DNA of 36,284 nucleotides, from positions 136,197-172,480 of the forward strand of contig JBAZWC010000001.1 of NCBI GenBank assembly GCA_041660565.1, read 5' to 3'. Shown one piece after another: positions 1,365 through 34,855 of this stretch. The position numbers and the translations under genes were made by a program. Position 1 is the first letter of the stretch. Each line of letters begins with the position of its first letter. The stretch is from Patescibacteria group bacterium (GTDB lineage: Bacteria; Patescibacteriota; UBA1384; CAJBMM01). Under the pieces are notes generated by a model. It ran no database searches. It was given only the letters and a program-made list of their open reading frames with translations, and was not told the origin of the DNA.

Positions 1365-1555
1365 CTGTCATTTCGACCCAATGAGAATGTCAATTCGAAT
1401 ATGTTGGAGAAATCTTCAGAAAGAACCCCTTCCAGTTTTTCTTTGAGATCTCTCCACCCCGCTAAGCGGGGTATCGGAACGCTCAGCGTCCCACCCTCGA
1501 GACAATGCTCGAGGCTCTGCCCGTAGGCTACGCCCGGAGGGAGTCGAGATGACAG
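1365..1555 (+). mobile_element. MITE-like non-coding palindromic element (TGTCAT-headed family)
   Basis: Terminal inverted repeats ctgtcatttcgac (1365-1377) and gtcgagatgacag (1543-1555) match 12/13. The interior carries small palindromes ccccgctaagcgggg and ggaacgctcagcgtccc. The left part recurs inside tgt (24771-24839) and the interior recurs inverted at 22874-22912. Confidence 0.7.
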
Positions 1556-12415: not shown

Positions 12416-12576
12416 AAATGGTTGTTAATGGTTAATTGTTAAAAGTTGACTGTTATCCAGTACCTTAATTAACTTACTTGGGATTCTGGCAGGAGAATAA
12501 GGCCGCACTTTGTGGTCTTTAATCCTGTCAGAAAAACTCGCCCCAACGCGGGGCAAATACCTTGGAGGATACTTCG

Positions 12577-13671: not shown

Positions 13672-14513
13672 AGTTCCTGTGGATTGCCGCTATCCTGCTC
13701 TGCGCCGACATGGCGACAGCGCAGGCGACGTATGATCGCGGTGTGGTCCGGTCGCACCCGGCCCGATCGGCTGGGCTGTCGCCGGACGGGCAGTCGATGA
13801 CGAATTTCGCCAAGGAAGGCATATTCGGCATCATGCTGCGCGACTTCTTCGGTTTCAATGACAAGGATGTCAGCGAAGCCAAGGTCAAAGCCGCAGCGGG
13901 CAATTTCACGCTGTGGCAGCTAGCTCCTGGTAGTCGGTTCGACGACATGTGTGGGGGAACCCCCATCAAGTCGGTCGGACCGGGACGCACGGCGTTCTGG
14001 TTAGAGTACTATCGTCTCGAGGTTAGTTCGGGCAAGGTTGCCCGATTCGTGACGATCTGCGCTAACGGGATCAAGCTGTCCAAGGAAGGCACTCAGATCA
14101 AGCCGCACGCCGTAGTGGTTACTCGGGACGTCCCGCGCGACGTCATTCGAGACGTTCCCGGTGAGAACGTTTACGTGTTCCAGTACGAGGAACGAGTCGT
14201 CGAGGTGCCCGGCCCAGAACGGGTTGAGTACATCGACAGGCCGATTCTCGTTCCGGTGGCACCTCTGTACGGCGAGGGGCCGCGGACGGTAGGGTCGCAC
14301 GTGGTGCAGACCTATCCCGTGGCGTTTGTCGGCTACACGTTCCGATCATCTGATCGGGCGAAATGCCGGCCACAGCCGAGGCCACGGCCAAGGCCAACCC
14401 CGCCGGGCTGTACGCCCGGAGTAATTCCACCCGGGCCACCAATACGGATTGGCCCACCCAACCCCCAAGACCCGAACCAGGGCTTGGGACCGGCTCCTCC
14501 GATACGGAGGTAG
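13668..14513 (+). CDS. secreted hypothetical protein with Pro-rich C-terminus (GC-rich cassette 1, gene B)
   Basis: The ATGA start/stop overlap with gene A indicates translational coupling. Signal peptide MKFLWIAAILLCADMATAQA. C-terminal RPQPRPRPRPTPPGCTPGVIPPGPPIRIGPPNPQDP. Confidence 0.6.
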   Translation: MKFLWIAAILLCADMATAQATYDRGVVRSHPARSAGLSPDGQSMTNFAKEGIFGIMLRDFFGFNDKDVSEAKVKAAAGNFTLWQLAPGSRFDDMCGGTPIKSVGPGRTAFWLEYYRLEVSSGKVARFVTICANGIKLSKEGTQIKPHAVVVTRDVPRDVIRDVPGENVYVFQYEERVVEVPGPERVEYIDRPILVPVAPLYGEGPRTVGSHVVQTYPVAFVGYTFRSSDRAKCRPQPRPRPRPTPPGCTPGVIPPGPPIRIGPPNPQDPNQGLGPAPPIRR

Positions 14514-19942: not shown

Positions 19943-20004
19943 GCGCTACGCGCAAATTTTAAATTTTAAATTTTTAATTTTAAAACAAATGGAATGGAGT
20001 CAAT

Positions 20005-20312: not shown

Positions 20313-20888
20313 ATGAAAAACATCCACCTTTACGTCGGATTAGGCAATCCGGATAAAAAATATCAATTAACGCGTCATAATATTGGATTTAGGGTGATAG
20401 ATGCGTTGGTTGATCGTTTGCATTATGAAAAACCCGATCATGCGCACGGGGCGGAAATTTGGTTACATCAAAACTTGGCTGGCGATAAAATTATTTTGGC
20501 CAAACCAATGACTTATATGAACAATTCCGGCGAAGCGGTGCTAGAGTTAATGCGATTTTTCAAAATCGGTGAAGATGATCTAACGGTAATTCAAGATGAT
20601 ATCGATCTGGATTTGGGATTAATTCGCACCCGAGTTGGTGGGGGAACCGGTGGGCATAACGGCATCGCGTCAATTCAAAATCTATTGGGTCACGAGCATT
20701 TTAAGCGCATTAAGCTTGGGATTGGCCGGCCGGAACATCAAGGCGAGGTAGAGAAATACGTATTGTCGGATTTCGAAGCAGATGAAACAGCAGTCGCTCA
20801 GAAAATGATTGACAGCTCGGCTGATTATGTGCTAAAATTAGTCAATCAAGAAGTAGAATTCAGCGAAGAAACAATCAAGCCGAATTAA
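20313..20888 (+). CDS. pth: peptidyl-tRNA hydrolase
   Basis: 191 aa. LYVGLGNPDKKYQLTRHNIGF, TYMNNSGEAV, and GGHNG. Confidence 0.95.
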   Translation: MKNIHLYVGLGNPDKKYQLTRHNIGFRVIDALVDRLHYEKPDHAHGAEIWLHQNLAGDKIILAKPMTYMNNSGEAVLELMRFFKIGEDDLTVIQDDIDLDLGLIRTRVGGGTGGHNGIASIQNLLGHEHFKRIKLGIGRPEHQGEVEKYVLSDFEADETAVAQKMIDSSADYVLKLVNQEVEFSEETIKPN

Positions 20889-20956
20889 AAATTTGAAATT
20901 TGAAATTAACGATGAGTGGGAGCTTCGAAAAAGCGTTATCACCACGAAAGGAAAAC

Positions 20957-21842: not shown

Positions 21843-21871
21843 CTGTCATTCCCGCGAAGGCGGGAATCCAG
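21843..21871 (+). repeat. TGTCAT-headed palindromic unit
   Basis: ctgtcattcccgcgaaggcgggaatccag, with stem attcccgc / gcgggaat, 5 nt after the rplA stop. Confidence 0.7.
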
Positions 21872-21896
21872 TCTATGAAAAACTAACTCCTATTTC

Positions 21897-22009
21897 GTAG
21901 CCCAGACTTCTTGACCTGCCGTAGCTCGAAGAGCGAAGGAGGTTAGTCTGCTCATTGGTACGCTACCTCCTACGCTAAAGCTTCGGAAGGTCAGGGAAGC
22001 GTGGGCTAC
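21897..22009. repeat. long imperfect hairpin (~45-nt arms)
   Basis: gtagcccagacttcttgacctgccgtagctcgaagagcgaaggaggt is roughly complementary to acctcctacgctaaagcttcggaaggtcagggaagcgtgggctac. Confidence 0.6.
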
Positions 22010-22073
22010 GGACGTTCTTTAATACGAGAATCACAACCGATGTTAGGTGTGTCCACAAAGGAGGGACACAGAA

Positions 22074-22703
22074 ATGGCCTCGCAAACAGCAAGCCCATCA
22101 TGCTACGTGAATCCGCATGAATGGGAAGAGCGCGAAGTGACGGAATGTACCCGCCTATTCAGGTTAACCAACATTCCGGAGTGGGATGGGCTACGAGACC
22201 GCATAAGCAGGTGTCCGGTTTGGGGGACTACTTGCATTGCAGTCCCGCTGTGCATGACACGTCCACAGCTGCTTGAAATGCTGATGATGCTGGGTGTCAA
22301 GATCGCGGGAAATGACCCAGTGGCGGCAGATTGCGAGGGGGAGGATTACCCCCTTCGAGTCGGCACATTCGGGGTCGATCTGCCATGGTTTTTTGCCCGC
22401 CGCGAGTTGGGCGAGCACCCATTTGGTTTTCCACTTGACAGTATGGGTGCCCTTTACCGGTCTATGGGTGCTTACGGTATCGCGCCGGTCGAGTTGGCGC
22501 TCTGGGCAATCGCGCGACACGTCGCTTCTGGCGGTGCATTGCCAACACTACCAACATGGATCGCCGGCCTCAATGTTGTGGGAGGCGGATCGATATTGGC
22601 GCTTGACATGGCCAACGGTCCGTTGAGGATTACCGCCGTTGCACACAACATCCAAGCGTCGAACATTGCCGGCCTGCCATGGTATTTCGCGCCGGCACGG
22701 TGA
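22074..22703 (+). CDS. hypothetical protein, no signal peptide (GC-rich cassette 2)
   Basis: ATG at 22074 with AAGGAGGG at 22058-22065. 209 aa and GC-rich (37/60 G+C hand-counted at 22441-22500). No motif recognised. Several overlapping ORFs in other frames are expected for GC-rich DNA. Confidence 0.55.
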   Translation: MASQTASPSCYVNPHEWEEREVTECTRLFRLTNIPEWDGLRDRISRCPVWGTTCIAVPLCMTRPQLLEMLMMLGVKIAGNDPVAADCEGEDYPLRVGTFGVDLPWFFARRELGEHPFGFPLDSMGALYRSMGAYGIAPVELALWAIARHVASGGALPTLPTWIAGLNVVGGGSILALDMANGPLRITAVAHNIQASNIAGLPWYFAPAR

Positions 22704-22780
22704 GCCAACATCGCGATTCGCACTGGGCGCTTGGGTCAACACGACCCCGGCGCCCGTTTATTTCTCCTCACCTCTCCGAG

Positions 22781-22912
22781 CCGTAGGTCTACGAGCCGGT
22801 GGCCGGCCTACGGCCACCCTCTCCTCTTGGAGGAGAGGGGACAATAGGAATTCCTTCTCCTCTGGAGGAGAAGGTGGAACGCTAAGCGTCCCGTAACCCC
22901 GCTTAGCGGGGT
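22781..22912. repeat. cluster of five short GC-rich palindromic units
   Basis: The units are: ccgtagg...cctacgg (22781-22813); ccctctcctc-ttg-gaggagaggg (22817-22839); ccttctcctc-tg-gaggagaagg (22853-22874); ggaacgctaagcgtccc (22876-22892); ccccgcttagcgggg (22896-22910). The last two are an inverted copy of 1455-1492. Confidence 0.75.
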
Positions 22913-22947
22913 GCCTGTAAGGCGGATGAGGAGGGAATCAAAAATCA

Positions 22948-22976
22948 TTGACAATTACAATCAAATAAGATAAGAT
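22948..22976 (+). promoter_or_regulatory. sigma-70-like promoter candidate for rplJL
   Basis: TTGACA (22948-22953), 17-nt spacer, TAAGAT (22971-22976). Confidence 0.4.
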
Positions 22977-23115
22977 ATAAATAAGTTTCCAAAGACCATC
23001 AGGCCGCTAACGCGGGTAATCTTGTAAAAGTACTGATGCAGGAGCAAAGTCAATCAAAAGACAGCTGCTTTTACTTTGGACACAGAGCAGTTTTTTATTT
23101 GCGAACGGAGTAAAA
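22977..23115 (+). promoter_or_regulatory. possible rplJ (L10) leader with attenuator-like hairpin
   Basis: A ~140-nt untranslated leader ends in ctgct...agcag followed by ttttttattt (23065-23100), just before the rplJ Shine-Dalgarno. L10 leaders are known in other bacteria, but I cannot confirm the fold by eye. Confidence 0.3.
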
Positions 23116-23637
23116 ATGGCCAAAACCAAAGAAGCCAAAAATCAACTTAAAGACAGTTTGTCCGATAAACTTAAGCGCGCCAAAATTGCGGTGCTATTAA
23201 AATATCAGGGCTTAAAGGTCAAAGATTTAGAAGAGCTACGCAAAAGCTTGCGAAATATGGGTATCGACATGGTTGTGCCCAAAAACTCTATCGCTAAAAT
23301 TAGCTTGAAAGAGCAGGGGATAGAAGTTACTGGTGATGCCTTTAGTCAACCATTGGCGATGATCTTTTCTTATGATGACGAAGTCAAACCGGCTAAAGAA
23401 ATCACATTGTTTGCTAAATCCCACGAAATTGTGGAAATTTTAGGTGGAATTTTGGAAAACAAGATGATTGACGCCAGCGTTATCAAACAGCTATCCACTT
23501 TGCCATCACGTGAAGAGTTGCTTGCCAAAATGGTTGGCTCCATCGCTTCGCCGCTTAACGGATTGGTCAATGTTTTGTCCGGAGTGCCGCGTAGCCTGGT
23601 TAACGCCTTAAAACAAATCGAATTACAAAAAAAGTAA
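23116..23637 (+). CDS. rplJ: 50S ribosomal protein L10
   Basis: 173 aa. The position immediately upstream of rplL and the L10-like N-terminus (KEAKNQLKDSLSDKLKRAKIAVLLKYQGLKVKDLEELRKSLR). Confidence 0.93.
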   Translation: MAKTKEAKNQLKDSLSDKLKRAKIAVLLKYQGLKVKDLEELRKSLRNMGIDMVVPKNSIAKISLKEQGIEVTGDAFSQPLAMIFSYDDEVKPAKEITLFAKSHEIVEILGGILENKMIDASVIKQLSTLPSREELLAKMVGSIASPLNGLVNVLSGVPRSLVNALKQIELQKK

Positions 23638-23662
23638 AAAATAAATCCAAGAAAGGAATACA

Positions 23663-24058
23663 ATGTCAGACGAAAAATCATTTCAAGATTTAATGGACAA
23701 AATTGAAAAAATGTCCGTGCTTGAATTATCCGAGTTCGTAAAAGCGCTCGAAGAGAAATTTGGAGTTACTGCCGCCGCTCCTATGATGATGGCTGGTGGT
23801 GCTGCTCCTGCTGCCGGTGCAGCTGCTGAGCCAGAAGAAGAGAAAACCAGCTTTACGGTTGTGTTGGCTGCTTCCGGTGATCAGAAGATCAACGTGATCA
23901 AAGCGGTACGCGAAGTGCGATCAGACTTGGGCTTAAAAGAAGCCAAAGATTTGGTAGATGCTGCGCCTAAAACCGTTTTAGAGAACGCTAGCAAAGCCGA
24001 TGCCGAAGCCGCCAAAGAAAAATTGACTGCTGCCGGTGCCACTGTTGAATTAAAGTAA
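23663..24058 (+). CDS. rplL: 50S ribosomal protein L7/L12
   Basis: 131 aa. An Ala-rich hinge ([24 protein letters not shown]) and the C-terminal domain [25 protein letters not shown]...GATVELK. Confidence 0.95.
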
Positions 24059-24083
24059 TCATTTAATTTGCAAATCGAAAAGC

Positions 24084-24114
24084 AGAGAGGCAGCTGTTAA
24101 AGGCTGTCTTTTTG
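24084..24114 (+). terminator. rho-independent terminator after rplL
   Basis: agagaggcagc / gctgtcttttt stem (with G-U pairs) running into a T-run. Confidence 0.6.
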
Positions 24115-24124
24115 TGAAAAACAT

Positions 24125-25447
24125 ATGAAAAACGGACAATTCAAATTAATCGCCACATCAGGCAAAGCTCGTGCTGGGGAATTGCAGACAGCGCATGGTT
24201 TGGTGCAAACACCGTGCTTTATGCCGGTTGGTACCAAGGCTAGCGTCAAATCGCTTGACCCTACAATTCTTGAACAACTAAACGCTCAAGTAGTTTTGGC
24301 AAACACTTATCACCTGGCAATGTCTCCCGGATCAGCACTAATTTCGAAACAGGGTGGATTGCATAACTTTATGCAATGGAATCACCCAATTTTAACCGAT
24401 TCGGGCGGGTTTCAAGTGTTTTCGCTAGGTAAAGGTAAAAAGAACCGCACCGAAGAATCGCCTGATCAGGTGATTCCCGAAGCGACGATTACTGAGGATG
24501 GGGTTACTTTTAAATCGCATCGCGATGGAAGTGAACATTTATTTACCCCGGAAATTGCGATGAAAATTCAGGCAGAGCTTGGCGCTGATATTATTATGGC
24601 GTTTGATGAATGCCCGCCATATCCATCAACCCGAGCTGAATATCTTGCCGGAATGGAGCGAACCCATCGTTGGCTAACCCGCTGTATCAATGAAAAGAAA
24701 TCGCTAGAATCCTCGTCGTCATTTCGACCAAATCAGAAGACGGAGGACGGAGGACAGAATACGGATAATTTGTCATTTCGACCCGGGGAGCGCGTCAGCG
24801 CGACCGCGTTGGAGAAATCTCAAGAAAAAATCCCCTTCCGCTTTCATCAAAATAGTCCGTCCGATCAATTACTATTTGGCATTGTTCAGGGTGGGGTAGA
24901 CGAAGATCTGCGCAAGACCTCAGCCAAATTTGTGGCATCGCAAAATCTGCCCGGCGTTGCCATTGGGGGAGTGGCTAATGGGGGAGAGAGCCGAGCCGAA
25001 ATGGTGCAGCAAGTGGAATGGGCGCTGGCTGAGCTACCACAGGATAAACCAAGGTATCTAATGGGAATTGGCACGCCGCTAGATTTGCTTGATTTTATAA
25101 CACGGGGGATTGATATGTTTGACTGCGTGTTGCCAACTCGTTTAGGCCGCAATGGCGCATTCTGGATGGTTGAAAATGGCAAGGGAACCAGAGTGCAAAT
25201 TAAAAACTCCAGATTCACTAACGACTCACGCCCGCTAACCGAGGGTTGTAAGTGTGCAACTTGCACCAGATTCAGCCGCGCATACGTTCACCATTTGTTT
25301 GTAGAGAACGAGCCGCTTTCGATGCAATTGTTATCAATTCATAATATATTCATACTTATTGATCTTACGCATCAAATACGCCAAGCAATCATCCAAAACG
25401 AACTCAAAGCATTATCTACCAGTCTGAGGCGAGTCTGGAAAGACTAA
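24125..25447 (+). CDS. tgt: tRNA-guanine (queuine) transglycosylase carrying a ~60-aa in-frame insertion
   Basis: 440 aa. TDSGGFQVFS, LLFGIVQGG, DMFDCVLPTR, and the zinc site CKCATCTRFSRAYVHHL. An extra segment lies between HRWLTRCINEKK and QLLFGIVQGG. Confidence 0.9.
   Translation: MKNGQFKLIATSGKARAGELQTAHGLVQTPCFMPVGTKASVKSLDPTILEQLNAQVVLANTYHLAMSPGSALISKQGGLHNFMQWNHPILTDSGGFQVFSLGKGKKNRTEESPDQVIPEATITEDGVTFKSHRDGSEHLFTPEIAMKIQAELGADIIMAFDECPPYPSTRAEYLAGMERTHRWLTRCINEKKSLESSSSFRPNQKTEDGGQNTDNLSFRPGERVSATALEKSQEKIPFRFHQNSPSDQLLFGIVQGGVDEDLRKTSAKFVASQNLPGVAIGGVANGGESRAEMVQQVEWALAELPQDKPRYLMGIGTPLDLLDFITRGIDMFDCVLPTRLGRNGAFWMVENGKGTRVQIKNSRFTNDSRPLTEGCKCATCTRFSRAYVHHLFVENEPLSMQLLSIHNIFILIDLTHQIRQAIIQNELKALSTSLRRVWKD
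24715..24845 (+). repeat. composite TGTCAT-family repeat inserted in frame within tgt
   Basis: Two left-end copies: cgtcatttcgacc at 24717 and tgtcatttcgaccc at 24771. Then ttggagaaatct (24809-24820) and ccccttcc (24832-24839), in the same order and spacing as in the intergenic element at 1366-1436. Confidence 0.7.
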
Positions 25448-25466
25448 TCCTTAAGTTTTAAAATTT

Positions 25467-25489
25467 AAAATTGAAAATTTTTCAATTTT
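25467..25489 (+). terminator. A/T-only hairpin after tgt (weak terminator candidate)
   Basis: aaaattgaa-aattt-ttcaatttt, within an (aaatttt)n-like tract. Confidence 0.3.
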
Positions 25490-25543
25490 GTGTGTAGATT
25501 TGATCTATTTGAGTAAAAACCGTGCAAATTAACCGTAAAGTAC

Positions 25544-25572
25544 TTGACAAAACGTCTCAGGTATGCTATTAT
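25544..25572 (+). promoter_or_regulatory. sigma-70-like promoter candidate for GC-rich cassette 3
   Basis: TTGACA (25544-25549), 17-nt spacer, TATTAT (25567-25572). Confidence 0.5.
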
Positions 25573-25619
25573 TGTATGTTAAGCTCAATTATTAGTGAGT
25601 TAGCAGTACATTAAAAATT

Positions 25620-25680
25620 GTTAGTGCAACTAAAGCGATTAACAACCTTGGTTGGTTGTTAGTCTCTTAGTCGCACTAAC
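25620..25680 (+). promoter_or_regulatory. long hairpin in the 5' leader of the collagen-like gene
   Basis: Outer stem gttagtgc (25620-25627) / gcactaac (25673-25680) is perfect. Inner arm attaacaacc / ggttgttagt matches 9/10. Confidence 0.5.
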
Positions 25681-25719
25681 GCACATACTCTGAAATTCTC
25701 TGGGAGGAGAAATACGGCC

Positions 25720-26298
25720 ATGAAGTGGCTCACAATGTTGTTCGTCATGGCGGCCGTTGTAATGGCCGCAACAATTCCTGCGTTCGCGCAGGATGATGAT
25801 CGGATCGACGGGCAGCCAAAGGCAGATCAGGTGGGGCAGACGTCCCAGCTGGTCGCGCCACCGGACCAGTCCACCCAGTCGACCGAAACCCTGAAAGGGG
25901 ACAAGGGCGACACCGGCGAGAAGGGCGATCCTGGCGCAACCGGCCCGGCCGGTCAGCCAGGTCATGAGGGCAAGATGGGACCAGCTGGTCCCACTGGTCA
26001 CCCTGGACGTCAGGGTCGTACCGGCCCTCGTGGTCGTGATGGTAAGAACGGCCACGACGGTCGCAATGGCCGGGATGCGGTCGTCAACTACGACGCAATC
26101 GTGGGTCATGTGATGGAGCTTTTGGAGAAGAAGTGGGAAAATCCCAACAACCTCCCCAAGCCGTTGAAGGATGACCACACACTGCTCCAAGTCGTCGGCA
26201 CCACCGCGATTGCGGCCCTGTACTGGAACTGGATCATCGGGATCGCGATGATCATATTCGTTGTAGTCTTTGTTGTTCATATTAAGCGCGGCTGGTAG
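25720..26298 (+). CDS. collagen-like triple-helix-repeat protein with signal peptide and C-terminal TM anchor (GC-rich cassette 3)
   Basis: GGGAGGAG Shine-Dalgarno. Signal peptide MKWLTMLFVMAAVVMAATIPAFA-Q. 20 uninterrupted G-X-Y triplets. C-terminal hydrophobic WNWIIGIAMIIFVVVFVV followed by HIKRGW. Confidence 0.75.
   Translation: MKWLTMLFVMAAVVMAATIPAFAQDDDRIDGQPKADQVGQTSQLVAPPDQSTQSTETLKGDKGDTGEKGDPGATGPAGQPGHEGKMGPAGPTGHPGRQGRTGPRGRDGKNGHDGRNGRDAVVNYDAIVGHVMELLEKKWENPNNLPKPLKDDHTLLQVVGTTAIAALYWNWIIGIAMIIFVVVFVVHIKRGW
25897..26076 (+). repeat. (G-X-Y)20 collagen-like coding repeat
   Basis: GDK GDT GEK GDP GAT GPA GQP GHE GKM GPA GPT GHP GRQ GRT GPR GRD GKN GHD GRN GRD, aa 60-119. Confidence 0.9.
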
Positions 26299-26310
26299 TG
26301 GCGCTTGAGG

Positions 26311-26340
26311 CCCCCGCGGGCAGCTGCTCGCGGGGGTTTC
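26311..26340 (+). terminator. rho-independent terminator after the collagen-like gene
   Basis: cccccgcggg-cagctg-ctcgcggggg gives a 10-bp stem followed by ttt. Confidence 0.7.
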
Positions 26341-26408
26341 GCATGTCCGAAAAAAACATTGCTATCAACAATAAAGTTGTGCCATACTTATACTATAAAG
26401 GAGTAGTT

Positions 26409-26735
26409 ATGGCCAATGTCCAAGATCTAATGGAAAAAGATATCTTTGAACTATTACATATTCCAGATTTGCCGGATGATAAAAAAACTGAAATGCTAAA
26501 CATTATTAACGAAACTATTCAAGCCAGAGTAGTTGCGCGGATTGCTGAAGCAGTATCGGAAGAAGAAGCACAACAATTTTCTGCACTCGCCGAAAAAGAT
26601 GACCAAGAAGCGATGAAAAAATTCTTAACCGATCGTCAAATCAGCTTAGAGCAACTTGCACTAGAAGAAGCGTTAAATTATCGTATTGAATTAGTCGAGA
26701 CATTAGATTTAGCTACAAATTCTAAGGAAAGTTAG
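26409..26735 (+). CDS. small helical acidic hypothetical protein
   Basis: ATG at 26409 with AAAGGAG upstream. The ORF-track start at 26298 would run through the preceding terminator. 108 aa, and the stop lies 1 nt before the ATG of the giant gene. Confidence 0.6.
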   Translation: MANVQDLMEKDIFELLHIPDLPDDKKTEMLNIINETIQARVVARIAEAVSEEEAQQFSALAEKDDQEAMKKFLTDRQISLEQLALEEALNYRIELVETLDLATNSKES

Positions 26736-26736
26736 A

Positions 26737-29700
26737 ATGCCCGAAGGTTTATCTGCCGGAGAACCGGAACCACAGCCAAAAGTTGGCTTTAGAGAAAGAC
26801 TAAAGCAGAGATTTGGCCGTACAGAATCTGTAGACAAGAATTTGTCTGTAGAAGAAATACGAGAACAGCTAAACGCTCTACGCTCAGATGTAATGATATT
26901 TGATGATGACGGCAATGAAATTACTCAAGAGCATAATCCAGCCAAAGAAGCGGAACTCAAACAAGCTTTGATTCAAGCGATACTCAAAAAGTCAAAGGAA
27001 GGCGAACTTTCACCGGAAGATAATGATGATTTGGTTAAAGACCTAGTTGAAAATGGACATCAATCTGCGATGGCCGATATTAGTGTATCCACTCATGGAT
27101 TCAGAAATTTTCAAAAAATGTTAGACGTTACCGGTCAAAAATCGATTGAAGTTGATGGTGAAGAAGTAAATCGAGAAACAAAATCGTTTATATTAAGCAA
27201 GATTGATAAATTGCCAGAATATTGGCGCCGCCAGGTTAAAAATGGAATTGTTGCTGGCACAATTTCGGCGGCAGTTATTGGATTGCTCGCGGTAACTGTT
27301 GGTGCACCTGTAGGGATAGCAGCCATATCTTTTGGTGGCGCTACACTGGCCAAGGGGGCAGCAGACAAACTATTTCGTGATCGGCTAATTCATAAAGACA
27401 AAGATGGCGATGGTAGTTTGGCGTATAAAATCGCTCAAGATCGAGCAGGCAACATCACCGAAATGATGGAGCTGGGCAAAAATTATCAAGCCGAGCTAGA
27501 CCCAAATCGCAAAGCACAGATTTTACAAGAAATTCTTGAGCGGACCAAGAAGCGTGAGAGTGAAAATCTGAAACAGTACGAATCACTTTCAAGAAAGGCG
27601 GCATGGATTGAAGGTATTTCCGGAGCCGCCGGGGCAATGGTGACTGGCGCCTTAACTCATTCGATTGTAATGGGACAAGAGGTAAAGCAGCAAATTGCGC
27701 ATTGGGCTAAAGATGGAGTGCAGATTCACGATAACCAGTTGGTAACAGATCCAAATGTTGGTCACAACGTTAAAGAAACAGCAGATGGCACGTGGCGGTT
27801 TATTCTTAAGCAAGCGGATATTGATAAAGCCAAACATTTGTTTGGGGCTCACTGGCAGCAATATCTACACGGTGCAGGACAAAACGGACCTTTTGGACAG
27901 GGAATGTCTCCGGTTGCACCGTCACATTTATTGCCCGGCCAAGAAATCTTTCATAATTCAAAATTTGCTGAAGTTGTAATTAATAGGTTAGCGGCGCACG
28001 AAGTAGTTAGCCATATTTCGACTCTTGGAACAGTCGGTGCAATCGCGGTACCAGGAGCAGCCTCTGGATTGGCTAGCGAAATGTATAATAACCCAACATC
28101 ACAAAAATCACCTCTTTCGTCACAGCATGCAGAAGCATCTTCAGATACGCCAACCGAAACAGATTCTGATATCACAGAAGATATCCCTATTGACACAGAT
28201 ACTGATGGAACTTCCGGAACCGAGCCGGTTGATACTGAACCGGAGCCTGATAAAGCCGAGCTAGATCAATCGGGGCGTAAGAATGATACAATCAAAGATT
28301 CTTTAGACCCGTCAGAGACAATAGAAGATAAAAAGGTGGATCGCTCTGACCGTCAGCAGCGCATCTCCGATAAGGCTGAAAAGATATCGCGCATTTCTAT
28401 ATCAGAAGCTGGGAGTTACTGTCAAACGGTTTATCGAGAAGCATATAAATTTGCCCGGGAGTTACAAAGGGGTGAGGGTGTTTACGACGCAGATGCACTC
28501 ACCGCTATTGGTGTAATAATGGATTTGGTTAAAAATGGCGAATCGTCAACAAAAAATAGTTTTAGATTCGCTGAAAAAGTTTTTTCTCAAAATGATGATG
28601 AGTTACGTGCTATCGCGAGTCGAATTAACGACCCGACATTATCGAATGAGAGTAGACGCAATTCTTTAAGTGATTTGGTTGAACATATCATACCTCTCAT
28701 TCAAATTTCAGATAATCAGGCAGATAGTGGCACTGTTGAAGAAAAAGAATCTATTCTTAAAGAAATTAAGAATGGTAACGAAATTGAATTGCCGGTTAAG
28801 GATAAAGATGGAAAGAACCTAATACTAAATGAACAAATTGTCGATGGGCTAAAATTTAAATTATATAATCCAAGTGCAACTCTTCTAGAAAAAACAAAAG
28901 TGATTTGGGAAAAATACAAAGATAAAGACAGAGCCAAGGTCAAAATTCATTCCAGCGTACCAAGAGAAAAGGTTTATTATTATGAACTAGTAGATCCGGA
29001 CGCGGAGCCGGCGACTGTTTCATCAGAACCTGTTGGTGGGGCGGAAAAGACTGAAAAGTCGGCTGAACCAACTAAATTGCCGGAATTTAAAATTGAAAAT
29101 CTGGAAGCTTTACACGTCAATCAAGAAATTCCGTTGACCGACACCGAGCGCCTATTTATTGAAAAAGATCCAGTAGGGAATTTTATCGTTCCTGAAATTA
29201 TGATTAATGGTAGTAGGATTGCGCTAGATGATCGCAGAAAAAACCATGTTCATCACGATAATAAAATTGTTGTAATCACAAAAATACCGGGTACAAGTGC
29301 TGGTGATTTACTTTACCACGGAGAATTAGCAGATGCTCCTCAAAAAACTTCTGAACCAATCTTATCATCTAAAGGCGAACCCGTCGTTGAGCCGGAAGAA
29401 ACGCCAAAACCAGTAGAACCAACTGAACTGCCAAAATTTGAGGCAGACAAATTTGAAGGATTGCATGTTGGTCAGCAAATTACTCTTCGTGGGAAAACTG
29501 AAAATCTGGTTGCTAAAGGCGGAGAACCGCCACTTGTGCAAGTTAATGGAACTAATATCAAAATTGACAATCCGGATAAAGTGGCAGTGCAACACGGTCA
29601 TCAGATTGTGGAAGTTACCACGGTACCCGGCAACAGTCCCGAGGATATGTATTTTCACGCCAAATTAGTTGACACGCCAAGCGTTTTATCAAAACTAGAA

Positions 29701-31491
29701 CAATCTACACCTCAGCCAGAAGTTGAACGTAAAAGAATGGAAATACATCTAAGTTTGCCAGACGTGGGTGAGATTAAAAAAGGTGATGAACTTACGATAG
29801 ACAATCCAGTTGTTAGCGATAGTTTTATTCATAATGTATTGGCGCTGCCAACTCTAGTAATCAATGGCAAGAATTGTATTTTATACGATCCTAAACACCC
29901 AGAGGACATTAAACTCGCGAGAGAATATCTGGGGAAGGAAAAAATTAAGATCAAGCTTATATCACAGGATGAAAGAACGGGTACGTTCAAATATATTTTT
30001 CTTGAGCCCGATTCGTCAACTAAAGAAAAAGTAGCGAAAAATGTCGATGATACAGCCGGAACAAACCCTGCTAATGCTGTAGAGGCGCCAGCTGGACAAA
30101 ATTTAACTCGTCATGCAGAAGGTCCAATAAAAATCGAAAGAGAGTCCAACTATACCGGACGGCAAAAAGTGGCGTTTGATCGGGTTATGGCGGTCGAAAA
30201 TATGAGCCCAGAACAAGCCAAGGATTATTATCTTAAAGTGTATCGTCAGGCGGTTAATTTTGAATCCAGTTCAGGAGTCTCAATTCCGAACGAGGATTTG
30301 TTTGCCTTCGGATTAATTTCAGACTTGATTCGTAGCACAGATGAGCCAACCACCGTAGATTTCAATGACGCGATATCTATTCGCGAAAAAGATGCGGCCA
30401 CTATCACGGATATGTCAAAGGAGATTTTAGCCACTAATGATGATCATTACCGACAAATTGGATTGTCTGAACTTGGTCGTCACATTGTCACGTTGATTCC
30501 CAATAACGAAGAACCCCCAGCCGTACCCACGCCAGCTACAGAATCAATTACCACACCAACAGAGCCTGAAGTGGGGGCGCAAGCAGCCGCACCAATTAGC
30601 TCGGCGGCAAAAAAGAGCGCAGAATCTGCCACAGTTGAATCCGAAAGCCAGCGGCTGGAAAATGAAATTGCCAAATTACCTGATGAATTTAAGAGATTTA
30701 TCGAAGGTTTACAAAGTGTTGAGGAACATATTTATAGCAAGGACACAGAATGGCTATGTTCTTCCGATGGCCTAGCACATTTAGACAGATTTGTGTACGC
30801 GCCAGCTCCGTCGCTTGGTAGAGCTATTGGTCATGATGCGTCGGAAATATCACGCTATCTAAGTGGTATTGTACAGTCTCAAGCAGAATTACATAATCAG
30901 TTAGATGCTATCGGGATGCACCCGTTTGATGCTAAGGTGGGTGATGCGTTTAATTCAGACAATTACGATTCACCAGACGAGGAATTTGTATGGATAAGTG
31001 ATGGTCAAGAACGCCATAATCACATTGCTGGCGTATCTAGAATCGGTTACAAGCTAGGTGACAAAGTTGTACGCAAGGCAAGAGTGAAACGATGGATGTA
31101 TCATGAGCCTTCACCAGGTCAATCAGCCGAGCCAACATCTACTGCCACCGAGATTACGGCAGCAAAGACTCCTGGTAGACCAGAGGATGATATAATAATT
31201 GAAGATATTGGTGATGTGACTGAGCGCTTGCAACAATATGATGCGCGTCTAAATCAAGACGATCGATATCAAAGAATGACTGAACCAGAAAAATTGTTTT
31301 GCCGAATCTATCTTGATGCTCGCGGTTTCACCGACGACAATGTGCAATACTCTCTAGACTTAAGAAATACAGACGCAGAATCATTCGATATCGCATTAGA
31401 ATATACGACTAGTATTCTTAATCGAGAGTTTAGCGACAACTTGCGTTATGAATATTATGTAACATTACGCAATTGGCTCACTAAATTATAA
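26737..31491 (+). CDS. giant (1584 aa) membrane-anchored multi-repeat hypothetical protein
   Basis: Uninterrupted ORF with AAGGAAAG upstream. Two adjacent hydrophobic helices (27243-27350). An acidic T/D/E linker, four tandem ~80-92-aa modules, three copies of a ~100-aa helical module and a GrpE-like segment. Confidence 0.85.
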   Translation: MPEGLSAGEPEPQPKVGFRERLKQRFGRTESVDKNLSVEEIREQLNALRSDVMIFDDDGNEITQEHNPAKEAELKQALIQAILKKSKEGELSPEDNDDLVKDLVENGHQSAMADISVSTHGFRNFQKMLDVTGQKSIEVDGEEVNRETKSFILSKIDKLPEYWRRQVKNGIVAGTISAAVIGLLAVTVGAPVGIAAISFGGATLAKGAADKLFRDRLIHKDKDGDGSLAYKIAQDRAGNITEMMELGKNYQAELDPNRKAQILQEILERTKKRESENLKQYESLSRKAAWIEGISGAAGAMVTGALTHSIVMGQEVKQQIAHWAKDGVQIHDNQLVTDPNVGHNVKETADGTWRFILKQADIDKAKHLFGAHWQQYLHGAGQNGPFGQGMSPVAPSHLLPGQEIFHNSKFAEVVINRLAAHEVVSHISTLGTVGAIAVPGAASGLASEMYNNPTSQKSPLSSQHAEASSDTPTETDSDITEDIPIDTDTDGTSGTEPVDTEPEPDKAELDQSGRKNDTIKDSLDPSETIEDKKVDRSDRQQRISDKAEKISRISISEAGSYCQTVYREAYKFARELQRGEGVYDADALTAIGVIMDLVKNGESSTKNSFRFAEKVFSQNDDELRAIASRINDPTLSNESRRNSLSDLVEHIIPLIQISDNQADSGTVEEKESILKEIKNGNEIELPVKDKDGKNLILNEQIVDGLKFKLYNPSATLLEKTKVIWEKYKDKDRAKVKIHSSVPREKVYYYELVDPDAEPATVSSEPVGGAEKTEKSAEPTKLPEFKIENLEALHVNQEIPLTDTERLFIEKDPVGNFIVPEIMINGSRIALDDRRKNHVHHDNKIVVITKIPGTSAGDLLYHGELADAPQKTSEPILSSKGEPVVEPEETPKPVEPTELPKFEADKFEGLHVGQQITLRGKTENLVAKGGEPPLVQVNGTNIKIDNPDKVAVQHGHQIVEVTTVPGNSPEDMYFHAKLVDTPSVLSKLEQSTPQPEVERKRMEIHLSLPDVGEIKKGDELTIDNPVVSDSFIHNVLALPTLVINGKNCILYDPKHPEDIKLAREYLGKEKIKIKLISQDERTGTFKYIFLEPDSSTKEKVAKNVDDTAGTNPANAVEAPAGQNLTRHAEGPIKIERESNYTGRQKVAFDRVMAVENMSPEQAKDYYLKVYRQAVNFESSSGVSIPNEDLFAFGLISDLIRSTDEPTTVDFNDAISIREKDAATITDMSKEILATNDDHYRQIGLSELGRHIVTLIPNNEEPPAVPTPATESITTPTEPEVGAQAAAPISSAAKKSAESATVESESQRLENEIAKLPDEFKRFIEGLQSVEEHIYSKDTEWLCSSDGLAHLDRFVYAPAPSLGRAIGHDASEISRYLSGIVQSQAELHNQLDAIGMHPFDAKVGDAFNSDNYDSPDEEFVWISDGQERHNHIAGVSRIGYKLGDKVVRKARVKRWMYHEPSPGQSAEPTSTATEITAAKTPGRPEDDIIIEDIGDVTERLQQYDARLNQDDRYQRMTEPEKLFCRIYLDARGFTDDNVQYSLDLRNTDAESFDIALEYTTSILNREFSDNLRYEYYVTLRNWLTKL
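28762..30012 (+). repeat. four tandem protein-level repeat modules inside the giant ORF
   Basis: R1 28762-29001, R2 29065-29340, R3 29416-29679, R4 29737-30012. R2 and R3 align clearly: EPTKLPEFKIENLEALHVNQEIPL versus EPTELPKFEADKFEGLHVGQQITL, and INGSRIALDD versus VNGTNIKIDN. All end in an aromatic-rich strand plus (L/E)(V/A/P)D.P or LEPD. Confidence 0.7.
30772..31095 (+). other. GrpE-like segment within the giant ORF
   Basis: LAHLDRFVYAP...LHNQLDAIGMHPFDAKVGDAFNSDNYDS...IAGVSRIGYKLGDKVVRKARVKRW resembles the GrpE C-terminal pattern (G(V/M)..I...G..F(D/N)P..H.A...........(V/I).....GY.L.(D/G)(R/K)V(L/I/V)R.A.V.V). Eye-level similarity only. Confidence 0.4.
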
Positions 31492-31535
31492 GTAATTTAT
31501 TCAGTTTATTCTGTCCAATTTAATTGCACATAATG

Positions 31536-31673
31536 TGAATCCGGAAATTATTTTCCCTGTCATCCTGAACTTGATTCAGGATCTACATAATAAGAACCAA
31601 GGACTGGATTCTTAGATCTTGTCCGGAATGACACAACCCTGAGTAAATCATCAAACTGGAATTTCCGGATTCA
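31536..31673. repeat. nested palindromic element: 14-nt perfect inverted repeat enclosing two TGTCAT-family units
   Basis: tgaatccggaaatt (31536-31549) / aatttccggattca (31660-31673). Inside are ctgtcatcctgaacttgattcaggatc (plus orientation) and gatcttgtccggaatgacaca (minus orientation). Confidence 0.75.
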
Positions 31674-31736
31674 TAGTACATATTTTTGCATTAGCCAGAT
31701 AATCTGGTTATCATTATAAGTGTATATCTATTATAT

Positions 31737-31767
31737 GGATTCCGGGTCGAGCCCGGAATGACAGGGG
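31737..31767 (-). repeat. TGTCAT-headed palindromic unit (reverse orientation)
   Basis: ggattccgggtcgagcccggaatgacagggg, with stem ttccggg / cccggaa, ending 5 nt before the ATG at 31772. Confidence 0.7.
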
Positions 31768-31771
31768 AATT

Positions 31772-31948
31772 ATGGAAATTGCTCAATTGCGCCAAGGTTT
31801 TGAAAAGGTCAATGCCCGAATTGATCGCTTACAGAAAATGTACAGTGAAGATATAAATGTAACGCTTGAGGATGTAAATAAAGTCCGCCGGTATGCCGAA
31901 AAATTAGAGAAACGGTTGGCAAAACTGGAGCTAATGCAAAATGGATAA
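31772..31948 (+). CDS. small coiled-coil hypothetical protein (58 aa, below ORF-track cutoff)
   Basis: ATG 31772 to TAA 31946-31948: MEIAQLRQGFEKVNARIDRLQKMYSEDINVTLEDVNKVRRYAEKLEKRLAKLELMQNG. It overlaps the next ATG (31941) by 8 nt. Confidence 0.45.
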   Translation: MEIAQLRQGFEKVNARIDRLQKMYSEDINVTLEDVNKVRRYAEKLEKRLAKLELMQNG

Positions 31949-32342
31949 GCCAAGAACTCTAGAAGAACCGTCACAGCCGGATGAAATAGTATCATCCGAA
32001 GTGGTTAGTAATCACGTTGCCGAAAAACCGGCTGTCGAGAAAATTACTGACGGTATTTTAGCCGAACCCGGGCAAAAACCGCCAAAAGATGAAATGGCAT
32101 CAGACGGTCCTTCTGAAATTGTGTCTGCAGAAGTGCAACCACCAACACCCAAGGCCCCCCTCGAGACTGTAACTCCCAATACATCCAATCTTCCCAATGA
32201 CCCCTATATGCTAGCAGAAGAAAAAGCAGTTCAACATGAAACATTTAAGCAAATGGAGCACGCTATTCGGGATCGTAAGACCGGGGAAGCATACGAGCTT
32301 GACCAAGCAGTAATCGCAATGCGTCAAGAAGCGGAAAAATAA
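31941..32342 (+). CDS. Pro/Glu-rich, probably disordered hypothetical protein
   Basis: 133 aa. The stop overlaps the ATG of the ATPase gene (TAATG). Confidence 0.5.
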   Translation: MDKPRTLEEPSQPDEIVSSEVVSNHVAEKPAVEKITDGILAEPGQKPPKDEMASDGPSEIVSAEVQPPTPKAPLETVTPNTSNLPNDPYMLAEEKAVQHETFKQMEHAIRDRKTGEAYELDQAVIAMRQEAEK

Positions 32343-34855
32343 TGGACACACGCTATTTTCCAAACGAACCTGTAACAACAACTCAAAGCGCGTGGCCGCT
32401 ATTTTTAGGGTTGTTGCTGCTTGCTTTGGTAATTGCACTGGTCACAATATTGGTGTGGTGGCTAAAACATAAATCAGAGCAGTCTCGTCTGAAACGATCG
32501 CTTGAACTAACGATGTTGCAGGTCAGTTTACCTAGAGACACTAATCCATCCGAAGAAGATGTGCGTCAAGATTTTCGCGAGCTAATTGCTATTGGTGAGC
32601 CGTTGATCGCCAGCTTTCAACACTTATATGATCATTCTCGCAAGTTTGGTAGCGTGCCCCAAGAGCACATTACCTTTGAAATTGCCGCCCACGATCGCGA
32701 AATATTCTTTTATGTTGGCGTTTCTAAACATCTGGTTAGCTTGATTGAAAAACAAATTCACGCTCAATATCCGGATGCGATGATAGAAGAAATTCAAGAT
32801 TACACCATTTTACGCGATAAAAACGCCAAAATTGCCGCCGATCAGCTAAAATTGGCAAAAAGCTTTATCTTGCCCATTCGCACCTATCGAGACCTCGAAT
32901 CCAGCTCACTTAACGTCATCACCAATACCTTGTCAAAACTGGGTGATGATTCCACAGCGGCAATTCAATTTTTAATTCGCCCGAATGATGGCTATTGGCG
33001 CACGCAGGTGATGTTTTGGGCCAAGCAGCTGCAACTTGGTAAAGGATTTAACCCGTATGCCGATACATCGATGCGCCAGTTTTGGAATATTCTAAGCCCG
33101 AATTTGAAAAAATCGGTTATGACCGAAGACGCCAAAGCAGAAGCGGAGCGCCGTCAGTTAACTCCAATGCAAGAAGAGCAACTGAAATTACTAAACAATA
33201 AATCCGGTAAGGTGGGATTTGACGTTCAAATTCGAATTATTGCTACCGCGCCAACTGCACCGGAAGCCAAAACGGTGCTTGAAAACATCTCTTCGTCATT
33301 TGCCCAGTTTACCGATCCTACCGGTAACTCAATTCAGCCAGCGCATTATCCTAATGTAGCTCGGTTGGTGTTGGATTATATTTTGCGCACCTTTACGCCG
33401 GGACGAGTGATGATTTTGAACACCGAAGAAATTACCTCGTTGTTTCATTTTCCAAATCGTCATATTGAAACTCCAAACATCCGCTGGCTTAAAGCCAAAA
33501 AAACCACCCCGCCGCCAAACCTTCCAACCTCGGGTAGGTTGCTGGGCGTATCGCATTTTCGCGGTGAAGATAAACAAGTGTTCATTAAACCAGCGGACCG
33601 CATGCGCCATTTGTACGCGGTGGGTAAGACTGGTGTGGGAAAATCAACCTTGCTGCAAAATATGATTGTAGATGATATCAAAGAAGGTTTGGGAGTGGCG
33701 TATTTGGATCCGCATGGTGACTCAATCGAATACATTATGCGACACATTCCCGAGAATCGAATTAAAGATGTGATTATCTTTGATCCATCCGACACTGCCC
33801 GTCCACTCGGATTAAACTTGTTAGAGTGGAGTACTCCGCAGCAACGAGATTTTTTGGTCCAAGAAGCGGTGCAGATATTTTATAAATTATTTGATCCAAA
33901 CCAAACCGGTATTGTGGGGCCGCAGTTTGAGCATTGGTTGCGTAATGCGGCGTTAACGTTGATGTCCGACCCGAATGGGGGAACGCTGATCGAAATTCCA
34001 CGTTTGTTTGTGGACAAACAGTTTGAAACCCAAGCGTTGCAACACGTTACCGACCCGGTGGTACGCGCGTTTTGGGAACAGCAGATGTCCAAAACCTCCG
34101 ATTTTCATAAATCCGAAATGCTTAACTACTTTACCTCTAAATTTGGTCGTTTTATGACCAACACCATGATTCGCAACATCATCGGTCAGCCCAAAAGCGC
34201 GTTTGATTTTAGGAAGGTGATGGATGAAGGCAAAATTTTGCTGGTTAATTTGTCTAAAGGTAAAGTGGGCGAGGTTAACAGTAATTTGCTCGGTATGATC
34301 TTAGTGTCTAAATTGCAGGTAGCGGCGATGAGTCGGGCTGACGTACCGGAAGATCAGCGCCCGCCGTTTTATCTTTATGTTGATGAATTTCAAAACTTTA
34401 CTACCGACGCCTTTGCGTCCATATTATCCGAGGCACGCAAGTACGGCTTGGCTCTAAGTTTGGCCAACCAATACATCGAGCAGCTAACCGAGCAAATTCG
34501 CAATGCGGTAGTGGGCAATGCCGGTACAATTGTGGCGTTTCGAGTGGGTGCCGCTGATGCCGAGTTTCTGGTCCACGAGTTTCAGCCGCTGGTTGAGGAC
34601 GATCTAATCAATATCGACAAATATAACTTTTACTTAAAACTGTTAATTGATAATCGCGCCGAGCGACCGTTTAATTGCGAAGTTTTGCCACCAGATACCA
34701 CCGGCACGGCTGCGATGGCAGATGCGGTTCGCCACGCATCACGCACCACTTACGGTCAAGACGAAAAAGTAGTTGAAGCTCAAATAATTGAACGATCTAA
34801 AGTAGATCAGATCTCACTAGGTGGCATGGAACAGCCGGTTCCATCTGCCAGGTAA
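32342..34855 (+). CDS. membrane-anchored VirD4/TraD-like (type IV coupling protein-like) P-loop ATPase
   Basis: 837 aa. N-terminal TM helix (WPLFLGLLLLALVIALVTILVWWL), a ~380-aa unknown domain, Walker A GKTGVGKST followed by AYLDPHGD, and Walker B FYLYVDEFQNF. SEARKYGLALSLANQY...GNAGTIVAFRVG is typical of TraD/TraG C-terminal modules. Confidence 0.8.
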   Translation: MDTRYFPNEPVTTTQSAWPLFLGLLLLALVIALVTILVWWLKHKSEQSRLKRSLELTMLQVSLPRDTNPSEEDVRQDFRELIAIGEPLIASFQHLYDHSRKFGSVPQEHITFEIAAHDREIFFYVGVSKHLVSLIEKQIHAQYPDAMIEEIQDYTILRDKNAKIAADQLKLAKSFILPIRTYRDLESSSLNVITNTLSKLGDDSTAAIQFLIRPNDGYWRTQVMFWAKQLQLGKGFNPYADTSMRQFWNILSPNLKKSVMTEDAKAEAERRQLTPMQEEQLKLLNNKSGKVGFDVQIRIIATAPTAPEAKTVLENISSSFAQFTDPTGNSIQPAHYPNVARLVLDYILRTFTPGRVMILNTEEITSLFHFPNRHIETPNIRWLKAKKTTPPPNLPTSGRLLGVSHFRGEDKQVFIKPADRMRHLYAVGKTGVGKSTLLQNMIVDDIKEGLGVAYLDPHGDSIEYIMRHIPENRIKDVIIFDPSDTARPLGLNLLEWSTPQQRDFLVQEAVQIFYKLFDPNQTGIVGPQFEHWLRNAALTLMSDPNGGTLIEIPRLFVDKQFETQALQHVTDPVVRAFWEQQMSKTSDFHKSEMLNYFTSKFGRFMTNTMIRNIIGQPKSAFDFRKVMDEGKILLVNLSKGKVGEVNSNLLGMILVSKLQVAAMSRADVPEDQRPPFYLYVDEFQNFTTDAFASILSEARKYGLALSLANQYIEQLTEQIRNAVVGNAGTIVAFRVGAADAEFLVHEFQPLVEDDLINIDKYNFYLKLLIDNRAERPFNCEVLPPDTTGTAAMADAVRHASRTTYGQDEKVVEAQIIERSKVDQISLGGMEQPVPSAR

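Follow-up and report, generated by a model that had tools for sequence, protein, structure and literature searches.

The 36,284 nucleotides analysed here (referred to as the window) stem from an uncultured, ultra-small Patescibacteria group bacterium (GenBank assembly GCA_041660565.1, contig JBAZWC010000001.1, positions 136,197 to 172,480 of the forward strand) and contain a tgt gene, encoding a tRNA-guanine transglycosylase that looks essential, in the gene order L1-L10-L7/L12-tgt that is kept in the orthologous loci fetched. Within this gene, a segment resembling an intergenic repeat lies in frame between conserved parts of the enzyme. Very probably, it goes back to a non-autonomous mobile repeat of the repetitive extragenic palindromic (REP) type, belonging to this genome of the Candidate Phyla Radiation (CPR), that inserted into a helix-strand loop of the triosephosphate isomerase (TIM) barrel. 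The gene and the three sites considered below are the following (window coordinates):

24125..25447, + strand: tgt coding sequence, bacterial tRNA-guanine transglycosylase of 440 aa (open reading frame (ORF), Pfam, PDB, AlphaFold2/Foldseek)
24434..24472, + strand: site A, after GGFQVFSLGxGKK, empty in the window (13 aa); repeat dimers in the orthologues P0002, P0005 and P0013
24701..24865, + strand: site B, variable loop SLESSSS...HQNSPSD of 55 aa, where P0007, an orthologue free of the insert, has 6 aa and Zymomonas mobilis 8 aa
25169..25183, + strand: site C, after RNGAxWxVE, empty in the window (5 aa); colonised in P0002, P0009 and P0013

The product is a member of the bacterial Tgt family: it matches PF01702 with E = 1e-135 and no other domain than TGT, and among known structures it retrieves those of Z. 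mobilis TGT (E = 1e-98). The structure-based alignment falls into two stretches, which pair query residues 5-187 with Z. mobilis residues 15-182 and query residues 243-430 with residues 191-373; between them, the 55 residues 188-242 stand in place of 8 residues (183-190) of the Z. mobilis enzyme. The net gain at site B, which follows RWLxRCIxxKKxLE and corresponds to the insert of the window, amounts to about 47-49 aa compared to Z. mobilis TGT and P0007 and is thus smaller than the ~60 aa of the original prediction, which had been made from the DNA alone. Peptides encoded by the insert include e.g., VSATALEK and TEDGGQNTDNLSFRPGER. That prediction had also stated that the frame stays open, and indeed the ORF runs uninterrupted from 24125 to 25447 with no stop codon in the insert; over 22863-34396, and hence across tgt, the window agrees at 100% identity with an independent Logan assembly of SRR18595301, whose contig end (22863) falls inside a repeat patch of the L1-L10 spacer. 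The catalytic and zinc motifs proved to be intact as well: the catalytic aspartate, the substrate-binding residues and the zinc site CxCxxC...H are all present, and D92 (TDSGGFQ), D161 (AFDEC), Q255, G281/G282, D333 (DMFDCV), C375, C377, C380 and H406 are invariant in a 17-sequence alignment with ~130 invariant columns; in the comparison with known structures, they align to Z. mobilis D102, D156, Q203, G229/G230, D280 and the zinc ligands.

The origin of the additional residues becomes apparent from a comparison with an intergenic element of the same window. In line with the original prediction, the modules of tgt positions 24716-24844 and their order are those of the element at 1366-1554. A Smith-Waterman comparison of the insert with 1365-1555 reached a score of 51, compared to 18.0 ± 2.3 (maximum 29) for 1000 dinucleotide shuffles, and among real 165-nt segments of the window only the repeat patch at 22800-22960 scores comparably to the tgt insert. 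Without any gap, 24771-24844 aligns to 1366-1439 over 74 nt with 72% identity, the blocks TGTCATTTCGACCC, GTTGGAGAAATCT and CCCCTTCC being identical. The sequence GTCATTTCGAC occurs exactly at 1367, 24718 and 24772, in all cases on the + strand, and with one mismatch allowed it yields 5 matches against 0.82 expected, a number reached by none of 100 shuffles; TTGGAGAAATCT has just two occurrences in the window, 1404 and 24809. The parts of the two copies are as follows:

1366..1554, + strand: intergenic head-to-head dimer (fold z-score of -3.2 for 1365-1510)
1366-1415, + strand: left unit of the intergenic dimer, arms ATTTC/GAAAT
1446-1554, - strand: right unit of the intergenic dimer, arms ATCTC/GAGAT, with three extra hairpins
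24717..24738, + strand: unit fragment in tgt with tag CGTC, arm ATTTC and then GACCAAATCAGAA, lacking a matching 3' arm (90% to 1367-1387; exact GTCATTTCGAC)
24739..24770, + strand: spacer between fragment and complete unit, GACGGAG GACGGAG GAC, by direct reading
24771..24820, + strand: REP-type unit in full, TGTC-ATTTC-GACCC[variable 24 nt]GTTGGA-GAAAT-CT, encoding (L)SFRPGERVSATALEKS (exact pattern match, unit catalogue and arm complementarity)
24821..24844, + strand: extension running colinearly with the intergenic copy's spacer/loop, CAAGAAAAAATCCCCTTCCGCTTT versus TCAGAAAGAACCCCTTCCAGTTTT, specific to this genome

Among 193 GGAGAAATCT sites in ~1.1 Mb of loci, an A-rich run together with exact CCCCTTCC after GGAGAAATCT was found only in the two window copies; a single further site (L117) shows CCCTTCC with one mismatch after GGAGAAATCT, and there the A-rich run is missing. 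Because the extension is common to these two copies alone, the tgt copy and 1366-1439 form one within-genome lineage.

The family to which both copies belong was characterised further. Judged by its covariation, the structural unit is a REP-like stem-loop composed of a tag (T/C)GTC, an arm ATNNC, GA(C), a variable hairpin, GGA, an arm GNNAT and a tail CT, and what looks like a "palindromic element" is two such units placed head to head, often as a heterodimer. Since the left and right ends of the elements differ systematically (ATTTC left, ATCTC right), the self-pairing of each half was tested. Right halves left free by the search pattern numbered 66, and in 64 of them the five bases following the tag are the exact complement of the five preceding the inner CT; with independent arms, 20 such cases would be expected. 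The arm types comprise ATTTC, ATCCC, ATTCC and ATCTC as well as rarer ones. As the arms covary within each half, the stem-loop half was taken as the structural unit; the alternative of a single long hairpin formed by the whole element was rejected, given that left and right arms differ and each matches its own inner arm. Units were catalogued by a structural unit finder, and every one of them begins with (T/C)GTC; when translated, the conserved blocks yield merely 3-4 residues.

Complete copies span TGTCATTTCGAC to GTCGA(A/G)ATGACA (n = 84, 58-260 nt, median 107 nt) and fold into an outer stem with two or three hairpins (z-scores of -6 to -9); terminal inverted repeats TGTCATTTCGAC / GTCGAGATGACA are present in 1366-1554 and in other copies. 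The earlier designation as a palindromic repeat resembling a miniature inverted-repeat transposable element (MITE) holds for the terminal inverted repeats and for the dimer found intergenically, but neither for the tgt copy, which is not palindromic, nor for the insertion footprint. Around the 84 complete copies we found no direct repeats of 3 or 4 nt and a single one of 5 nt, i.e., no more than expected by chance, and no flank or target motif; the classical MITE model was therefore rejected. This lack of target-site duplication is compatible with a single-strand HUH-type or a recombination-based spread.

The gapped 27-base pattern TGTCATTTCGACCC-N18-30-GTTGGAGAAATCT, which the complete tgt unit matches exactly, occurs in five metagenome-assembled genomes (MAGs) of GTDB, carrying the labels Patescibacteria group, Berkelbacteria (two), Saccharibacteria and "bacterium". 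A looser pattern retrieved at least 120 JGI metagenome loci with at least 133 left-unit matches, and was also found in 10 IMG/VR contigs. The latter are predicted to be viral (L136-L145), one of them carrying three copies, and these contigs could represent prophage DNA, host-flank DNA or a vehicle between lineages. No Rfam family reached its gathering score in the window and none matched 1300-1620 at E <= 1; by this comparison, the element seems not to be a described RNA. Apart from the two copies of the tgt-insert family, the window contains further members of sister types:

21844..21870, + strand: canonical short REP of a sister type, TGTC-ATTCCCGC-GAAG-GCGGGAAT-CCA, directly 3' of the L1 gene stop; stem of 8 bp and loop GAAG within 21844-21867, tail CCA at 21868-21870
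31558..31632, + strand: intergenic element of the same superfamily, TGTCATCCTGAAC...CCGGAATGACA
31739..31763, - strand: single REP unit TGTC-ATTCCGGG-CTCGA-CCCGGAAT

Orthologous tgt genes give further insights into the history of the insert. The window Tgt and the 12 Tgt proteins closest to it are 51-60% identical by BLAST; the latter range from 390 to 494 aa, and in the alignment these length differences are confined to the sites A, B and C. The same segment in close orthologues had been named beforehand as the observation that would speak against an insertion; instead, P0007 carries inserts at none of the three sites, P0008 and P0010 have no insert at site B, and others carry different repeat-derived inserts. 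In P0006, site B holds a complete dimer of the tgt-insert family of 105-107 nt, in frame (L007 10588-10694) and with a fold z-score of -6.3. This dimer is read as VIST..., while the window copy is read as SFRP..., and since the element is thus used in another frame, the insertion at site B of P0006 appears to be an independent event. In P0013, dimers are present at all three sites, while in P0002, P0005 and P0009 sister subfamilies with the arms ATTCTGGC, ATTCCTGC and ATCCCTGC/ATTCCCGC are represented by dimers or single units. The inserts are related across sites and genomes: the site-C insert of P0013 matches the site-B insert of P0002 with 87.5% over 56 nt, and the in-frame site-C insert of P0009 matches the intergenic REP of the window (21843-21872) with 97% over 30 nt.

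In spite of 0-3 inserts each, none of the 13 closest tgt genes falls short of full length (99-100% coverage). The element family is open in a given frame in merely 17-38% of cases, and its lengths are evenly spread modulo 3. Because the frame is kept throughout despite such odds, its preservation is best explained by selection for a translatable Tgt product, although a protein search would more readily miss broken genes. In ten tgt-centred loci, 15 of about 17 credible intragenic units lie inside tgt, the remaining two being located in an L1 gene and in an unassigned ORF; two further intragenic hits with stems of 6-8 bp are probably due to chance. Candidate reasons for this preference are that the enzyme tolerates inserts, that selection is relaxed, or that earlier repeats serve as landing sites for new ones.

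Helix-to-strand loops of a (beta/alpha)8 barrel are located on the face opposite the catalytic one. An AlphaFold2 model of the window Tgt, built with the 17-sequence alignment, reached a mean predicted local distance difference test (pLDDT) score of 84.3, with values below 50 only at residues 104-115 (site A) and 200-236 (the insert), and matches Z. mobilis TGT in Foldseek with a template modelling (TM) score of 0.94-0.95 (normalised by target length). In this model, the insert sits between helix 170-197 and strand 249-254, i.e., in the loop after the helix in which it had been expected from the DNA, and the model predicts the repeat-derived segment to be a disordered loop.

According to the insertion scenario favoured here, a repeat unit would have landed in the tgt loop between the long alpha-helix and the next beta-strand, leaving a copy that consists of a 5' unit fragment, a spacer, a complete unit and an extension known only from the intergenic copy. 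As the net length keeps the frame and brings in no stop, the segment would be translated into a hydrophilic and probably disordered stretch of ~43 codons. The insert is predicted to lie on the barrel face opposite the active site, where the enzyme would tolerate it. We infer that it was this lineage, and not a deep ancestor, in which the insertion took place, and the repeated use of the same loops would reflect tolerance, possibly in combination with repeats landing in pre-existing repeats.

Several points weigh against this scenario or parts of it. Both the translation of the insert and the retained activity of the enzyme are what we infer from an open frame and intact motifs. Furthermore, the tgt copy has no right-hand partner unit and no significant secondary structure (z = -0.97, compared to -3.2 for the intergenic 1365-1510), and it may be either a singleton insertion or a dimer minus one half; as singleton units also lie between genes elsewhere, e.g., in L005 and L006, the tgt copy possibly is such a singleton. 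The 36-kb window contains two copies of the tgt-insert family and at least three of sister types, and the intragenic copies were all found via intact ORFs, so that frame-breaking insertions are under-sampled. Moreover, no transposase was seen between element ends 0.5-4 kb apart in the ~1.1 Mb of loci, with translations judged by eye and no profile search made; the genes between such distant end pairs look ordinary by the same inspection (malate/lactate dehydrogenase-like, PepD-like, PhoH-like and others).

Other explanations of the segment were considered. It is highly improbable that it represents an ancestral, lineage-specific Tgt loop, whose likeness to the repeat arose by chance or by copying of the intergenic element from tgt. 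The common right junction QN.P.DQLLFG of P0001-P0006 (five orthologues and the window Tgt), all with some insert at site B, would fit such a loop; however, these inserts are unrelated in sequence or lie in different frames, and insert-free orthologues exist. In addition, the similarity to the intergenic element is far above chance, the unit is also found between genes in many unrelated genomes and metagenomes, and the genome-specific extension common to the tgt copy and 1366-1439 is hardly reconciled with an ancestral origin. Also quite improbable is a tgt gene that is decaying or impaired by the insertion, with the open frame as a mere residue. The accumulation in tgt of 15 of the about 17 credible intragenic units of the ten loci could reflect relaxed selection, but the catalytic and zinc ligands and ~130 columns are invariant in 17 sequences, the 13 closest homologues are full length despite their 0-3 inserts, and the frame is kept consistently although open frames make up only 17-38% and one length in three is suitable.

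We find it scarcely credible that the repeat is removed by RNA excision-ligation or ribosomal bypass, resulting in a mature Tgt without the insert. Complete dimers in orthologous tgt genes do fold into very stable cloverleaf-like structures (z = -6.3), which are conceivably processable; nevertheless, such a mechanism would make it unnecessary for the frame to stay open and for the length to be a multiple of three, and still the frame is kept by all inserts of the 13 closest tgt genes, the window copy shows no significant structure that could serve as a processing mark, and no Rfam intron or ribozyme match was obtained. An adaptive retention of the insert, exapted for a new interaction of Tgt or for a role of the mRNA (stability or translation pausing), is unlikely. 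Such a role could account for TGTCATTTCGACCC and GTTGGAGAAATCT being perfect within the coding sequence while the variable part differs, as well as for the repeated use of the same three loops across orthologues. Perfect blocks are, however, equally expected after a recent insertion, sequence, frame and length of the inserts vary freely with some orthologues having none, and the loop is predicted to be disordered. An intein was rejected, as the ~49 aa fall short of the minimum of about 130 and neither Cys/Ser/Thr at the N-terminal end and His-Asn followed by Cys/Ser/Thr at the C-terminal end nor an extra Pfam domain are present, and an intron was rejected on size, junctions and frame preservation. 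Compared with these alternatives, the original observation stands, and the interpretation of the tgt insert as a mobile repeat is supported.

A broader view could be that REP-type units serve as a systematic generator of lineage-specific protein insertions in CPR bacteria, with a first insertion acting as landing pad and the loops becoming heritable "nurseries"; this proposal is tentative and has, in our opinion, a modest chance of being right. New peptides would then be repeatedly created, replaced and occasionally exapted at the three Tgt loops. The concentration of units in tgt (15 of ~17) and the fragment-plus-unit architecture in the window are compatible with this proposal, but are no demonstration of it.

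Apart from tgt, three metagenome units were found in frame in genes where Pfam domains extend across the unit or lie next to it:

L022 1251-1293: unit in frame in the wing/scaffold domain of SecA
L088 3139-3174, reverse orientation: unit in dihydrofolate reductase (DHFR; 183 aa versus a 159-position profile), read as EISP...GRNDS
L122 599-634: unit in frame in a DsbD-like gene, between DsbD_N and DsbD_TM

Some of the unit-bearing metagenome contigs are GC-rich and carry genes untypical of CPR, and some of the SecA, DHFR and DsbD contigs are probably not from CPR organisms. The repeat family hence does not appear to be confined to Patescibacteria.

Further observations concern other genes and genomes with related repeats. 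In the L1 gene of the P0011 genome (L015 7256-8266), a REP-type unit TGTCATTCCA...TGGAAT is located at 7568-7613 in reverse orientation; across the orthologous loci, L1 measures 309-358 aa, a spread suggestive of more inserts derived from repeats. The P0005 genome contains at least four near-identical 64-nt composite units, TGTCATTCCTGCG(C/T)AGGTCATTCGATT...GGGCAGGAAT, within 5 kb, which indicates, from their similarity, that a sister subfamily was amplified recently in this genome. They are located at:

L008 3980-4043, 5777-5840, 8134-8197 and 8445-8508: composite units of P0005

In the window itself, the L1-L10 spacer (21872-23115) measures 1.28 kb compared to ~0.4-0.9 kb in most orthologous loci. 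Together with the canonical REP at 21844-21870, this region features a large palindrome at ~21890-22012, an ORF at 22047-22703 (218 aa, 56% GC, no Pfam match) and a patch of short GC-rich hairpins at 22770-22920, which is partly the inverse of 1455-1498 (86%). A GC-rich island at 12500-14500 (57-62% GC versus ~43% elsewhere) contains many overlapping antisense ORFs; two of its ORFs, 12562-13671 (with a signal-peptide-like N-terminus) and 13668-14513, have no Pfam match. The first of these terminates in sequence rich in hairpins and in an incomplete repeat end, GGGTCGAAATGA (13660-13671), which provides its stop codon as well as the ATG of the next ORF. AT-rich motifs of the AAATTTTAAATTTT type occur in both orientations just 3' of genes (19954-19993, 20883-20907 and 25448-25489, the latter directly after the tgt stop) and may be terminator or promoter-like signals of the lineage. 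Directly downstream of tgt, 25720-26298 encodes a protein of collagen-like (Gly-X-Y) repeats whose start resembles a signal peptide; long antisense ORFs result from its GC-rich repeats, and its position is kept in several orthologous loci.

Beyond the individual gene, selfish DNA residing in genes that encode proteins, a classic curiosity of Rickettsia, is here extended to the CPR. One orthologous enzyme provides a natural series in which three loops are empty, hold a single unit or hold complete dimers of several subfamilies. Such a series could be used for dating insertions and for estimating the rate at which repeats decay into ordinary loop sequence, for asking whether repeats target earlier repeats, and for testing the tolerance of TIM barrels towards inserts of 20-60 residues. 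From a practical point of view, the repeats lead, in CPR MAGs, to inflated and fragmented gene calls and to broken assemblies, as exemplified by the Logan contig that ends in a repeat patch, and repeat-derived peptides such as SFRP..., VIST... or ...GRND should not be taken as conserved protein motifs.

In comparison with known systems, the elements share with MITEs (e.g., Correia/NEMIS, ERIC, BOX or Nezha) the terminal inverted repeats of 12-13 nt, the small size, the multi-copy and non-coding nature and occasional in-frame fusions to ORFs, but differ from them in that target-site duplications are lacking (84 copies), no parent insertion sequence was identified and the halves are the structural units. 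In REPIN/RAYT systems, as here, two inverted REP units form a mobile-looking dimer, singletons occur and target sites are not duplicated; the tag of the present elements, however, is (T/C)GTC and not GTAG, and no RAYT (IS200/IS605-type Y1 transposase) was seen in the loci examined, although no systematic search was made. We found no literature linking REP, MITE or palindromic repeats with Patescibacteria or CPR in a search that did not cover all journals.

The closest likeness in tag and arrangement is found in the CGTC/TGTC superfamily of REPs, which are described to have stems of 8-9 bp starting with A-T, loops of 4-5 nt and a CCA tail, to occur mostly as head-to-head dimers, to lack a dedicated transposase and, for some members in several species, to lie within known genes (Di Nocera et al., 2013, PMC3733652). 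Similarly, the tgt copy carries the tags TGTC (24771-24774) and CGTC (24717-24720), and in its family the AT-initial arm directly follows the tag (ATTTC/GAAAT). Head-to-head dimers with the tags facing outward (n = 84, the tgt copy itself being a singleton), the absence of target duplication, the occurrence both between genes and in frame within genes, and the apparent lack of a dedicated transposase are further common traits, and the sister-type REP of the window, when taken as 21844-21870, fully fits the description of CGTC-1 with its 8-bp stem, 4-nt loop and CCA tail (PMC3733652). In contrast, the tgt unit has 5-bp arms around an interior of 31 nt, with 25-45 nt of hairpin between GAC and GGA in the family, ends with the tail CT instead of CCA, and is found in Patescibacteria and diverse uncultured bacteria, unlike the members of the 2013 survey. 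We thus regard the tgt unit as a variant relative rather than a proven member of this superfamily, the two having been compared by their descriptions. Since intragenic REPs have already been described in other phyla, the phenomenon itself is not new.

For Rickettsia palindromic elements (RPEs), the parallel that had been drawn originally, in-frame and fold-compatible insertion in genes was described for the RPE-1 type (Ogata et al., 2000, as far as summarised in PMC10969869). Repeats of 100-150 bp, their in-frame position in housekeeping genes, compatibility with the fold and the sparing of conserved motifs are common to RPE-1 and the elements described here. While RPE-1 gives rise to one conserved peptide, several frames and both orientations are used here (SFRP, VIST and EISP...GRND); furthermore, the window copy is a single unit instead of a full palindrome, the host belongs to another bacterial lineage, and one gene has been colonised repeatedly at three loops across orthologues. 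The parallel is nonetheless apt and may exceed an analogy, as the elements show hallmarks of CGTC/TGTC-tagged REPs, the superfamily to which Neisseria dRS3 as well as the Rickettsia elements RPE-4 and RPE-6 have been assigned (PMC3733652).

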